This document shows positions 1-3,693 of a DNA stretch of 64,000 bases, one piece after another (position 1 is the first letter of the stretch; every line of letters starts with the position of its first letter). This DNA is from Candidatus Atabeyarchaeum deiterrae. GTDB taxonomy: Archaea; Asgardarchaeota; Atabeyarchaeia; Atabeyarchaeales; Atabeyarchaeaceae. Below the pieces are notes generated by a model. It had not been told where the DNA came from, searched no databases, and saw only the letters and a program-made list of their open reading frames with translations. The DNA lies in contig CP147780.1 of the NCBI GenBank assembly GCA_037310415.1, positions 1,216,001-1,280,000 of the forward strand, written 5' to 3'. The position numbers and the translations under genes were made by a program.

Positions 1-110
1 GCATGAAAATAGTTCAGATTATCTTTCACCGGCTTGGAGAACCAGCTGGAACTGGCTACGATGAGAGAAAATCATCGAAATTCGTGGGGCTGGATCAGCC
101 AAGCATCTAA
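1..110 (+). CDS. dcd: dCTP deaminase, 3' end only (runs off window)
   Basis: Manual translation from nt 3 gives MKIVQIIFHRLGEPAGTGYDERKSSKFVGLDQPSI*, resembling the dCTP deaminase C-terminus (GM+IxQ++F..L..P...Y..RKxSKY.GQ..P). Confidence 0.7.
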   Translation, partial: MKIVQIIFHRLGEPAGTGYDERKSSKFVGLDQPSI

Positions 111-182: not shown

Positions 183-354
183 TCATTGGTGAGTCGCGAG
201 ATTGATCTGCAGATCACTTAAAACACTACCTAGTTGGCGTCTCTCCTCATCATTCAGTCTTTCCTCAACCTGCTTCAGCATAAACCAGAAGCAATCTATT
301 TCTACCCTAGCTTTGATCCGTATTCTTCTCAATTCTGTTCTGACAGAGGCCTAG
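183..354 (-). pseudogene. Degenerate duplicate of the 3' end of the DUF1844 gene
   Basis: Manual minus-strand translation NRIEKNTDQ/(+1 nt)/ARVEIDCFWFMLKQVEERLNDEERRQLGSVLSDLQINLATHQ* aligns without gaps to the C-terminus of 1636..1995 (30/51 identical by hand count). It has a frameshift and no 5' part. Confidence 0.9.
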
Positions 355-1800
355 CGTGAGCTTTTTAGAGCATAATAGGATAACTATGAAATTGAGGCGA
401 TGAATCAGCGTGGTCGGCCGTCCCCGCGAACTAAGGATCGAAGCACTTTCGCCTGCGGAAAGAGCTTACCTGCTTGGCTTATACCTCGCCGATGGACGCG
501 CTGATGTTACTAACCTTCGGAATGATTATAGAGGATATCGCGTCAGGCTCTTCCTACAGTGGAATGAGGAAAAGATAGGAGAGAAGGTAGTGGAGATGCT
601 GAGGAGGACTGGCTTGAACGCGCACTTCGATAGACCCGAACAACGTGTAGACAGGATGGTAACCGTTCTTGCTTACTCCAAGGTCCTATTTGACTTCTTG
701 CCAAATGCGAAAGCTCTCTTGGACGACGTGGCGGTGAGGAACACGTTCTTTGAAATGAATCGCTTGTTTGAGGTTGAAAATGCAATTCCATTCTTGAGTG
801 GTCTTCTTGATGGCGACGGTTTTTGTGGTGCTAGTGTCAGGAGAGAGTATGGTCTTAGGAGCGTACGCAAGGAATGGTACTTCACCCAAACTAGGTATCC
901 ATTTCTGGTCGACTATGTCAAGTGTTTTGTCGTGTCTCTTGCCGCGAATAGTGTGGGAGTGGCAGAAGTATCTAATGGCGGGAAACGAGTTCGATTCCGT
1001 AGGTCTGGTATGCAAGCACTGCTCGATGCTGGTATAGCTAAATACTCGTGGAAGATCCAGAAAATGTTGGAGGTAATTGCTGCAATTCAGCGGGATGCCG
1101 AGAGATTCTACACTGTAGGTGAAGTTGCCAAGATGCTCGGAGTAAGTCCGGGACTTGTCTTGCGCTGGGTGAAGACTAACAGGTTGGGTCATCTGAAGAG
1201 ATCAAAGATAGCACTAGGAAAAACAAAGCCAGACAAAACTCACCTCTGGCACTACATTCCTGCTAATGAGGTGGAGAGGTTAAGAGAAGGTGTTACGAAG
1301 AATAGAGAGGAGATAGAGAGAATCAAGAAGGATGGAATGAAGCTGTTGGATGCCGCCAGGGCGCTTAGAATCTCCCCGAATACGATGCGCGGATGGTATC
1401 GGCGTGGAGAGCTTCGAGCCACACTGATTCACGAACCGACATGGAAGGGTAGAGGATATTTGGTGATATCTAAAAACGAGGTTCAGAAGCTCAAAAAGAG
1501 GGTCGGTTGGACAGATGACTGAACATGTGTGGAGGAGATACCTTTTTCTCAGGAGCCTCCCTTCATGGACCCAGCCCTGACGAATTCTGCATATGCCTGC
1601 GCTCGCTTTTGACCTCAAGTTTGACAGCAAAAGAGTCATGATTGATGTGTCACAAAATTGATTTTCAAGTCGCTCAGTAGGCTGTTCAGCTGGCGCTTTT
1701 CTTCTTCCGCCAGTTTTCCTTCGATCTGTTTGAATATGAATTCGAAAATATCAATCGCTACTCTAGCTTGATTCATGTCTTTCTCTATCTTGCTCGTGCG
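355..1800. mobile_element. Putative intron-less homing element: endonuclease plus replacement 3' end of DUF1844 gene (boundaries approximate)
   Basis: Endonuclease flanked by two diverged copies of the same gene tail in the same orientation. Confidence 0.55.
410..1522 (+). CDS. Free-standing double-motif LAGLIDADG endonuclease with two C-terminal excisionase/MerR-like HTH domains
   Basis: Motifs YLLGLYLADG and FLSGLLDGDG; HTH-like segments FYTVGEVAKMLGVSPGLVLRWVK and MKLLDAARALRISPNTMRGWYRRG. Confidence 0.85.
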   Translation: MVGRPRELRIEALSPAERAYLLGLYLADGRADVTNLRNDYRGYRVRLFLQWNEEKIGEKVVEMLRRTGLNAHFDRPEQRVDRMVTVLAYSKVLFDFLPNAKALLDDVAVRNTFFEMNRLFEVENAIPFLSGLLDGDGFCGASVRREYGLRSVRKEWYFTQTRYPFLVDYVKCFVVSLAANSVGVAEVSNGGKRVRFRRSGMQALLDAGIAKYSWKIQKMLEVIAAIQRDAERFYTVGEVAKMLGVSPGLVLRWVKTNRLGHLKRSKIALGKTKPDKTHLWHYIPANEVERLREGVTKNREEIERIKKDGMKLLDAARALRISPNTMRGWYRRGELRATLIHEPTWKGRGYLVISKNEVQKLKKRVGWTDD

Positions 1801-1995
1801 CGGATTGACGACCAAACCCAAGTTCCTCCATGCCGTTCCCGCGAGTACGCCCATGAAGAGCTTCAGTGTAGTATATGTATCGAGAGACGATATGTCAACG
1901 GCTTGCGGGCTTCCTTTCTCTTCCCCTTCGACTTCCTTTTCCTTTTTTTCCTCACTAGTATCTTTTGGTTGGCTCAAGCTTGCATGCTCCTCCAT
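1636..1995 (-). CDS. DUF1844 family protein
   Basis: AWRNLGLVVNP..KIEKD..QARVAID...L++LLSDLKINFV pattern; start set at the ATG of MEEHAS (track ORF extends to 2046). Confidence 0.75.
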   Translation of the reverse strand: MEEHASLSQPKDTSEEKKEKEVEGEEKGSPQAVDISSLDTYTTLKLFMGVLAGTAWRNLGLVVNPRTSKIEKDMNQARVAIDIFEFIFKQIEGKLAEEEKRQLNSLLSDLKINFVTHQS

Positions 1996-2709: not shown

Positions 2710-3693
2710 TTGCCATCTACTGGGAGTTCAGAGAGAACGAGGCTCGGATATGCTTACACCTTAGTGGCTGGCATATCTTTCAGTTTCACTGCATTGTTTT
2801 CGACTTTCCTGAAAAACCTGGGTGTCCCGTCAATCGAGCAAGGATTCTTCAGAATCTCCTTCACAGCAGTATTCTTCGGAATAGTCTTGTTGCTCAGATC
2901 CTCGCTACGTCACATAGATAGAACTGATGTCAAATTCTTCGTTATCAATGGGCTCTTCGGAATATGTCTTTCCATAACCGCTTACTTGTCTTCGATAGCA
3001 CTGGGCACACCCCTTGCAGTTGCAATCACTCTATCCTATCTCCAACCGATGTTCTCGGTTATACTTGCGAGAGTGTTTCTGAGTGAAACAATCACCAGAA
3101 TGAGAGTTGTCGCTGTTGTCACTTCCATTATCGGAGCATCCATAGTCAGCGGTATTTGGGAAGTCTTCAGCGCTGCGATGCAGATCAACATAGTTGGAGT
3201 GCTCTTGGCAACGTTGAATGGGTTCTTCTATTCGGTATACGTCATAGTCGGTAGACTCTCAGGCTCAAGCAAGAGCTACCATTTCGAGACAACAATGTTC
3301 TATTCATTCTTCTTCGGTCTGTTGTGGATGGCCCCAATCTGGCTGTTAATTAGCGAGTTCATCAAAGAACCAATAGTGACAGGTTTTGTAGTGGCTTTCT
3401 TACCTGAAGCTTGGACTTATCTAGTGCTAATCGCAGTTGTTGCGACAATCATTCCATACGGTCTTCTTGCCCTTGGACTAAGAAACCTCAAAGCTTCCAA
3501 AGCTGGTATTCTCCTTCTGATCGAACCTGTGTGCGTCATGATCATGCAAGTATTCGTACTCGGTCAGCCTCTCGCGCCATTGGCACTCGTTGGGGCAGCA
3601 CTGGTGCTGAGTGCCACGATACTTGTAAGCTTCGAAGGAAGATCTAGCAAGTTCAGCGCCAAGAGAGCCAAAGGTAGAGAATGCAAGAGTTGA
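2710..3693 (+). CDS. DMT/EamA family transporter
   Basis: About 10 hydrophobic helices in two EamA repeats (LQPMF..ILARVFLSE; LIEPV). Confidence 0.85.
   Translation: MPSTGSSERTRLGYAYTLVAGISFSFTALFSTFLKNLGVPSIEQGFFRISFTAVFFGIVLLLRSSLRHIDRTDVKFFVINGLFGICLSITAYLSSIALGTPLAVAITLSYLQPMFSVILARVFLSETITRMRVVAVVTSIIGASIVSGIWEVFSAAMQINIVGVLLATLNGFFYSVYVIVGRLSGSSKSYHFETTMFYSFFFGLLWMAPIWLLISEFIKEPIVTGFVVAFLPEAWTYLVLIAVVATIIPYGLLALGLRNLKASKAGILLLIEPVCVMIMQVFVLGQPLAPLALVGAALVLSATILVSFEGRSSKFSAKRAKGRECKS

Follow-up and report, generated by a model that had tools for sequence, protein, structure and literature searches.

The question raised by this locus was how a homing endonuclease gene could sit inside a working protein gene of an archaeon outside any intron or intein. 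The stretch analysed (hereafter the window) comprised 64,000 nucleotides (nt) of the single-contig, 2.76-Mb genome of Candidatus Atabeyarchaeum deiterrae (G000:C1:1216001-1280000). Near its left end, a gene for a LAGLIDADG endonuclease was found between an intact gene of the DUF1844 family and a second, partial copy of the DUF1844 3' end. It was concluded that the element was very probably a mobile cassette with a foreign DUF1844 end, lodged inside DUF1844, and that the end of the host gene had been replaced. Here, G000 denotes the genome of the window, G001 and G002 are two other genomes of the same family, and L and P numbers designate metagenome contigs or homologues and loci.

The layout proposed in an earlier note on this DNA, namely an intact DUF1844 gene, a LAGLIDADG gene on the opposite strand and a second DUF1844 tail beside the stop of dcd, was recovered at the same positions by open reading frames (ORFs) and Pfam matches (Table 1). 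The order from left to right was the end of dcd, the partial DUF1844 tail, the endonuclease ORF, a spacer, the intact DUF1844 and a nitroreductase gene. In an assembly check, one contig of the probable source run covered the whole region, and the contigs of an independent study showed the same arrangement at ~96-99% identity.

Table 1. Features at the DUF1844 locus; positions are those of the window.
Feature	Position	Strand	Remarks
dcd (dCTP deaminase), 3' end	1..110	+	stop at 110; gene start upstream of the window; native convergent neighbour of DUF1844
Displaced native DUF1844 tail, remnant	183..357	-	~57 codons, ~357 to 186, and stop 183-185; +1 frameshift
Left insert boundary and endonuclease 5' region	358..409	+	A/T-rich TATA-like motifs (CTTTTTAGAGCATAATAGG, 361-379)
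Free-standing homing endonuclease gene	410..1522	+	370 aa; LAGLIDADG_3 and two HTH_17 (Pfam); frame intact
Spacer between the convergent endonuclease and hybrid DUF1844 stops	1523..1635	.	113 bp; part of the insert
Intact (hybrid) DUF1844 ORF	1636..1995	-	119 aa; PF08899, E=4.8e-15
Imported K-type DUF1844 replacement tail	1636..1845	-	~residues 51/54-119 and stop; continues the reading frame of the native 5' part
Native DUF1844 5' part	1846..1995	-	residues 1 to ~50

The frame of the hybrid DUF1844 was intact and that of the remnant was shifted. The remnant read 'TLGLCQNRIEKNTDQ' in one frame and then 'ARVEIDCFWFMLKQVEERLNDEERRQLGSVLSDLQINLATHQ' and a stop (ARVEIDCFWF…LATHQ-stop) in the next; the +1 frameshift noticed before at CAA-A-GCT was traced to one extra A in the run 312-314 (GAT CAA [A] GCT AGG). 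The remnant alone still matched PF08899 (Pfam, E=5.5e-4), and the homology to DUF1844 tails ended at ~357. On one side of the endonuclease gene lay an added gene end in frame with its host, and on the other a displaced native one, as in the mobile-ORF (mORF) cassettes discussed below. Within the locus, the two tails had 26/43 identical residues (tblastn, E=4e-16). Over 43 ungapped codons the proportion of synonymous differences (pS) was ~1.0 and that of nonsynonymous differences (pN) was 0.21, which agreed with the view that both tails had been under protein-level selection and were not a recent tandem duplication.

The origin of the live tail was examined using nine metagenomic DUF1844 homologues and their contigs besides G000, G001 and G002. 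The tails were of two types. The K-type (…NLGLVVNPRT…IDVFEFIFKQIEGKL…DLKINFVTHQ) was present in G000, the G000-like P0011, G002, P0012 and a separate lineage, P0014-16. The Q-type (…QAWRKMGLVVDP…IDCFQ.ILK…DLQ.NFVTHQ-stop) was present in G001, P0017, P0019 and P0020, all of them empty sites. The K tail of G000 was 78-88% identical in nt (third positions 53-77%) to the K tails of otherwise divergent lineages. The 5' part of the same gene showed an amino acid (aa) identity of 38-47% to all other lineages, the exception being the G000-like contig P0011 (92%).

The mosaic structure was assessed by nt identities along the locus, given with third-position identities in brackets, where values near 40% mean saturation. 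Between G002 and its close relative P0017, the identities were 86% (71%) for the nitroreductase gene, 87% (77%) for the DUF1844 5' half and 95% (90%) for dcd, as against 64% (40%) for the tail. When P0019 was compared as well, the nitroreductase gene gave 86-88%, the 5' half 84-87%, dcd 94-95% and the tail 63-64% (third positions 37-40%). The relation was reversed between G000 and G002, which belong to different genera: the tail was 84% (74%) identical, compared with 71% (46%) for the nitroreductase gene, 55% (43%) for the 5' half and 75% (51%) for dcd. The expected incongruence between the current tail and the 5' half of the gene was therefore seen in both pairs. Because the tails of G000 and G002 matched well while their flanks and 5' halves were saturated, the ~200-bp K-type tail is, judged by these identities, a patch horizontally common to lineages whose surroundings, the DUF1844 5' half among them, have long diverged.

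The breakpoints of this patch coincided with the boundary of the insert. The G002 gene tracked P0017 up to '…ATT' and became K-type at 'CTG GCG GGC ACA', so that the change lay no more than ~10 bp beyond '…SILAG'. P0012 switched at the same place: its 5' half was of group B, to which G002 belongs, and its tail and dcd belonged with the P0014 lineage (group D; dcd 98% aa to P0014). In G000 the junction fell within codons L51-L59 ('LAG TAWRN L', window ~1845-1819). The earlier note had put the cut near NLGLVVNPRTSKIEK; the junction was a few codons upstream of this. The K tails linked to an endonuclease had in common an extra last codon and 'TGACTC', which suggests that the elements of G000 and G002 form one cassette lineage.

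These data also bear on the possibility that the DUF1844 tail was first duplicated in tandem at this place, and that the endonuclease gene was inserted between the copies before one of them decayed. Such a history would account for the same gene segment occurring twice, 1.3 kb apart and in the same orientation. It predicts a ratio of nonsynonymous to synonymous rates of at least ~0.5 for the decay of one copy, when the observed pN was 0.21 with synonymous sites saturated. Moreover, the current tail resembled its counterparts in other genera far more than its flanks resembled theirs, and the close relatives of G002 had an empty site with a different tail. We consider this history extremely improbable.

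The same site was found in three states. Empty loci, with dcd and DUF1844 convergent and nothing in between, had been predicted for relatives and were found in G001 (28 bp between the stops) and in the metagenome contigs L049/L050, L051 and L057. The dcd orthologues at the empty sites of all relatives lay 0-72 bp from the DUF1844 stop; the stop of the window remnant was 72 bp from the convergent dcd stop, the same distance as at the Q-type empty sites L049 and L051. A full element was present in G000 and probably also in L058. In G002, a decayed element lay between dcd and an intact DUF1844; what remained were the 19 final codons of the native, second tail and, from the C-terminal end of the endonuclease, a stretch of 66 aa that shared 61% identity with its G000 counterpart and contained one TGA. 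The G002 remnant and intergenic DNA aligned to the tail and 72-bp spacer of the empty-site P0017/P0019 at 68-72% nt, so that the prediction that a remnant groups with empty-site orthologues held for this genome. Presence/absence polymorphism at one homologous site together with decayed copies is the pattern of a homing cycle, and both were observed.

The 113-bp spacer of the insert was 86% identical in the G000-like contig L058, was weakly alignable with the G002 spacer and bore no resemblance to the sequence that follows K-type genes lacking the endonuclease. A fragment of a donor dcd within the spacer was considered and dropped. It was also observed that contigs of runs X6 and X8 (soil and wetland) had loose ends at window 1636-1641, where K-type tails were followed by different downstream DNA resembling the P0012/G001 type; therefore, endonuclease-free K-type alleles share samples with the occupied allele.

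The endonuclease was analysed by means of 40 homologues, which were gathered by searching 1.84 and 5.8 billion protein sequences. The two-domain LAGLIDADG nuclease occupied residues ~15-206 and was followed by winged HTH_17 domains at ~233-284 and ~309-354; HTH_Tnp_1 matches were recorded besides HTH_17 (Pfam). The AlphaFold2 (AF2) model built with the homologues (predicted local distance difference test, pLDDT, 91.1; predicted template modelling score, pTM, 0.81) displayed two alpha-beta-beta-alpha-beta-beta-alpha halves (residues 15-96 and 122-206) and then two winged helix-turn-helix (wHTH) domains; a single-sequence model was uninformative (pLDDT 44). A sequence search of the PDB with the endonuclease gave no significant match. 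The PDB matches listed by Foldseek were LAGLIDADG homing endonucleases (E-DreI, I-MsoI, I-AniI, I-DmoI and I-OnuI) and one LAGLIDADG maturase, with E ~1e-7; among these, I-DmoI had the highest target-normalised template modelling score (TMt 0.68-0.75). Both catalytic Asp motifs were present, LLGLYLADG (D28) and LSGLLDGDG (D134/D136). In the 40 homologues D134, G135, D136 and G137 were invariant, and D28 and G29 were at least 90% conserved. Because the window copy has neither a stop nor a frameshift, its product may be active, and the TATA-like motifs upstream presumably serve as its promoter.

The gene was embedded in neither an intron nor an intein: it lay on the opposite strand after the stop of the host gene, the remnant was out of frame, and no Rfam intron match was obtained in L004, L005, L023 or L043. 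As a separate observation, a family member in L061 (4705-6078; G001 genome ~1635705-1637078) was split in two ORFs and, as read from the ORF, apparently had three tandem HTH repeats rather than two. If this reading holds, the number of DNA-binding modules would vary within the family.

The same design recurred elsewhere in the family. Copies of the endonuclease numbered 4 in G000, ~7 in G001 and ~20 in G002; they were 30-45% identical and several carried stops. The family was not found in ~395 other genomes of the phylum that were searched, apart from two weak matches, and worldwide it formed ~125 clusters at 50% identity. In its tree the lineages were old and each kept to its own site, which was occupied by orthologues in more than one genome; the tree did not show a recent burst. 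The two flanks of each endonuclease locus were compared in six frames (threshold E<1e-5), and, as had been anticipated for homologues of the enzyme, partial duplicates of neighbouring genes were detected at 8/28 loci versus 4/150 random positions (Fisher p=4.6e-5); the latter amounted to 2.7%, the three strongest at E<=1e-17. Three more loci with duplicates came from wider flanks and one metagenomic contig.

Ten loci were resolved, five of them tail and five head replacements. The tails replaced were those of DUF1844 in G000 and in G002, of a 411-aa gene (probable peptidase) and a 67-aa gene (dodecin-like) in G001, and of a 371-aa gene (aminotransferase-like) in G002. The heads were those of a GlcD-like oxidase in G000, for which the site was empty in G001, of a P-loop GTPase, a hydrolase-like gene and a 245-aa ORF in G002, and of a DUF2284 gene in L097, next to a remote member of the family. 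All ten had the same polarity, with the dead copy 5' and the live one 3' of the endonuclease gene (9 independent sites, binomial p=0.004). The endonuclease gene was convergent with the host gene in the tail cases, and upstream and co-directional in the head cases, where the native promoter could transcribe the remnant, the endonuclease gene and the host gene together.

Ten duplicated segments from eight loci gave a pooled pS of 0.83 and a pN of 0.21; they were 55-80% identical at the protein level with synonymous sites saturated. Because pN was far below half of pS, the minimum expected had one of two identical copies decayed, the live and dead copies are, by this measure, homologues that diverged in different lineages, mostly under protein-level selection. 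The pooled pS exceeded the 0.75 expected at saturation, which may reflect a bias of the counting method, codon usage or selection for recoded ends.

A transposon or integrative element was considered as well, which would insert by transposition or site-specific recombination and restore the target 3' end as tRNA-targeting islands do. Integrative elements with a replacement 3' end are known, the HTH_17 domains are excisionase-like, HTH_Tnp_1 matches occur, and the Joint Genome Institute annotates one homologue as a transposase and another as a Pin-like recombinase. The protein nevertheless has no integrase, recombinase or transposase catalytic domain, its fold being that of a LAGLIDADG nuclease with wHTH domains, and the ends of the inserts bear no terminal inverted repeats, target-site duplications or identical attachment (att) cores. 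The copies within a genome are site-specific and ~30-45% identical, unlike families of insertion sequences, and duplicates that are 55-80% identical in protein with saturated synonymous sites are not att repeats. Since terminal repeats, att cores and a recombinase are lacking, and in view of the tree, such an element was judged very improbable.

Several further features were recorded around the family members. In L081 (G002 contig C84), a 455-aa ORF (1428-2795, -) stood between the remnant and the endonuclease gene, and in L077 (G002 C267), ORFs of 115 aa (dehydrogenase-fragment-like) and 265 aa (acetyltransferase-like), as classified by ORF reading, lay in the corresponding interval at 1234-2455; the extra genes may be cassette cargo or later insertions. 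Orthologous endonuclease insertions in L022 (G001) and L029 (G002) were flanked by a short direct repeat, at 1082-1117 and 3041-3076 in the former and 1082-1117 and 3056-3091 in the latter. It encodes 'PPEIDRETC' (12 aa, 75-83% identical) and may be all that is left of a displaced gene end.

In addition, a subset of the endonuclease genes was preceded at -217 to -13 by a conserved non-coding element of ~200 nt, which was absent from the window copy. It was found in G000 at 1081514-1081733 (+) and 2557243-2557014 (-), both outside the window, and in L023, L043, L037, L021, L035 and L026. The identity was 77-93% where the copies could be aligned and 67-72% to the most divergent ones. Two strong hairpins were formed, AAAGAACAAGTGGCG…CGCCTACTTTGTTCTTT and AAATCACCTC…GAGGTGATTT, with a minimum free energy of -70 kcal/mol over 160 nt and compensatory changes in 3/42 pairs; no Rfam family matched the element.

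It was proposed that the window element propagates by homing without splicing. The cassette extends over ~1.47 kb (window ~358-1821) and comprises the endonuclease 5' region, the LAGLIDADG and two-wHTH gene, the 113-bp spacer and the foreign DUF1844 tail. The enzyme would cut native alleles in the stretch that encodes '…LAG QAWRKMGL…', a target predicted from the breakpoints, and the occupied allele would serve as the template for repair. The upstream homology arm would be the 5' half of DUF1844, pairing with that of the donor, and the downstream arm would be the native tail and dcd, pairing with the remnant and dcd of the donor; the replacement tail and the endonuclease gene would be copied in between. 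The host gene would be kept whole by the diverged, presumably uncuttable end that the cassette brings along with its own stop codon. The old gene end would be left unexpressed and would then decay, and a newly invaded genome would largely have its own former tail as the remnant, which is the situation in G002. Across the putative target site the K-type and the Q-type differed at 13/33 positions, and these differences would render the hybrid immune. For a cassette of this kind to form initially, one illegitimate join would be needed. In other family members either the 3' end (endonuclease gene convergent) or the 5' end (upstream and co-directional) would be exchanged in the same manner, the replacement always lying 3' of the endonuclease gene. 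We inferred the cleavage, the exact target site, the resistance of the K-type and the repair pathway from comparisons of sequences.

Finally, the endonuclease might be a passenger: the K tail would have spread by ordinary homologous recombination, and an inactive or domesticated LAGLIDADG-HTH gene would reside in recombination scars. K-type tails without any endonuclease do exist (in P0012 and in P0014-16, which form group D), stops interrupt several copies of the family, and the activity of the enzyme is a prediction. This explanation is quite improbable, given that the same architecture and polarity recur at 10 loci in different host genes, that the breakpoints coincide with the insert boundary, that the catalytic Asp motifs are conserved in 40 homologues, and that decayed copies are in keeping with a homing cycle of the usual kind. 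Recombinants that have this breakpoint and no endonuclease are, besides, expected if any resistant donor can serve to repair cut alleles; the P0012 type may have arisen in this way, or from an invaded allele that later lost the gene.

Several observations weigh against gene-end replacement by a homing cassette. The K-type tails just mentioned imply that tail exchange can occur or persist without an endonuclease gene. About two thirds of the family copies had no detectable flanking duplicate. By overall identity, the remnant of G000 was assigned to neither tail type, the values being 47-53% aa and 61-65% nt to both. In blastn comparisons with Q-type tails it gave 66% over 157 nt for G001 and 71.5% over 172 nt for P0020. 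Its diagnostic residues were mixed, with C, L, Q and THQ-stop as in the Q-type and RQL as in the K-type. Close relatives of G000 with an empty site were not encountered. No empty-allele joint was seen in contigs of the same populations, but contigs drop rare variants and parts of the stretch were uncovered in runs X7 and X8. The mosaic test, when applied to the peptidase tail of G001 and the GlcD head of G000, gave no resolution, third positions being saturated among the three genomes, and the target site was predicted from recombination breakpoints (insert boundary, G002 and P0012). The cassette model also leaves one crotonase locus unexplained (L040/L089, G002 contig C258). Two 92-aa tail fragments, at 1013-1288 (-) and 2785-3060 (+) of L040, were 65% identical and inverted around the endonuclease gene; they were enoyl-CoA hydratase (crotonase)-like by ORF reading, and no intact gene adjoined them. 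A later inversion or nested events are possible origins of this arrangement.

On a wider scale, we give about an even chance to the idea that Atabeyarchaeia host a guild of LAGLIDADG-wHTH 'cut-and-rescue' drives on ordinary genes. Each lineage would bring a substitute 5' or 3' gene segment, always on its 3' side. The drives would shuttle gene ends between genera and leave behind chimeric genes and breakpoint hotspots, sometimes with cargo, and the strict polarity would come from asymmetric repair tied to target binding and not from chance.

The earlier note did not know the design to be described for archaeal chromosomal protein genes, and no paper was found that describes gene-end replacement by homing endonucleases on archaeal or bacterial chromosomes; a paper on mobile elements of Atabeyarchaeia does not mention LAGLIDADG genes. 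The design itself was already known from fungal mitochondria (PMC3630166), for which alone gene-end replacement has been found in print so far. In a free-living archaeon, a spare gene end would be a third means, next to introns and inteins, by which a homing endonuclease can reside in a gene that still works. In this lineage, the replacement is a habit of the family and not a single event, and gene starts are replaced as readily as gene ends. The cassettes make chimeric genes and move segments of ~100-300 bp between genera, and in this way would be a source of fine mosaicism and phylogenetic conflict within single Asgard genes. As the enzymes are paired with natural alleles predicted to be cleavable and resistant, their specificity is directly testable, and they are potential new long-site nucleases with HTH modules.

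Among known systems, tRNA-gene islands carry a replacement 3' end of the target gene and use tyrosine or serine recombinases and an identical att core. Here too the element-borne end keeps the target intact and the displaced end lies at the far junction; unlike in those islands, neither a tyrosine or serine recombinase nor an identical att core was present. The enzymes of archaeal rRNA introns and inteins, I-DmoI, I-Tsp061I and PI-PfuI, have the same monomeric two-domain LAGLIDADG fold. They differ in that the host gene is preserved by RNA or protein splicing instead of by substitution of a gene end, and in the lack of the extra C-terminal HTH domains.

Free-standing phage homing endonucleases, T4 SegF among them, offer another parallel. 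Intron-less homing is exemplified by T4 SegB and MobE (PMC2330249, PMC2790892, PMC2988022). As in the phages, neither an intron nor an intein houses the endonuclease gene and the donor allele differs at the target, and by analogy cleavage of an endonuclease-less allele would co-convert flanking gene sequence. The phage enzymes, however, are of the GIY-YIG or HNH type, and the flank of the recipient is replaced by them with no remnant (PMC2790892, PMC2330249), whereas the displaced end is retained here, probably as the downstream homology arm.

The closest likeness is to the fungal mitochondrial mORF 'gene hybrids' of Allomyces macrogynus atp6, Glomus sp. atp6, atp9, cox2 and nad3, Rhizopus atp9 and Mortierella cox2 (PMC3630166 and references therein). 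In both systems a free-standing LAGLIDADG gene (in mitochondria also GIY-YIG) is inserted with a foreign, frame-restoring C-terminal segment, and the native C-terminus persists as a second copy further downstream; divergence of the inserted end is much greater in DNA than in protein, and the native end groups with close relatives (PMC3630166), as is clear here for G002. The endonuclease gene of the tail cases is on the opposite strand and convergent, in contrast to mORFs, which are co-directional and, in 2/4 Glomus hybrids, in phase with the host gene (PMC3630166). The present elements target ordinary cytoplasmic genes on an archaeal chromosome, and mORFs the respiratory genes of an organelle; the enzyme has two or three extra winged HTH domains, and each genome holds 4 to ~20 diverged copies. 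In addition, 5' ends are replaced too, which to our knowledge is not known from mitochondria. As far as can be told, it is new that the host is an Asgard archaeon, that gene heads are replaced too, that the polarity is strict, that the endonuclease gene can lie on the strand opposite to its host gene, that the enzyme has additional winged HTH domains, and that a genome holds diverged copies in such numbers.

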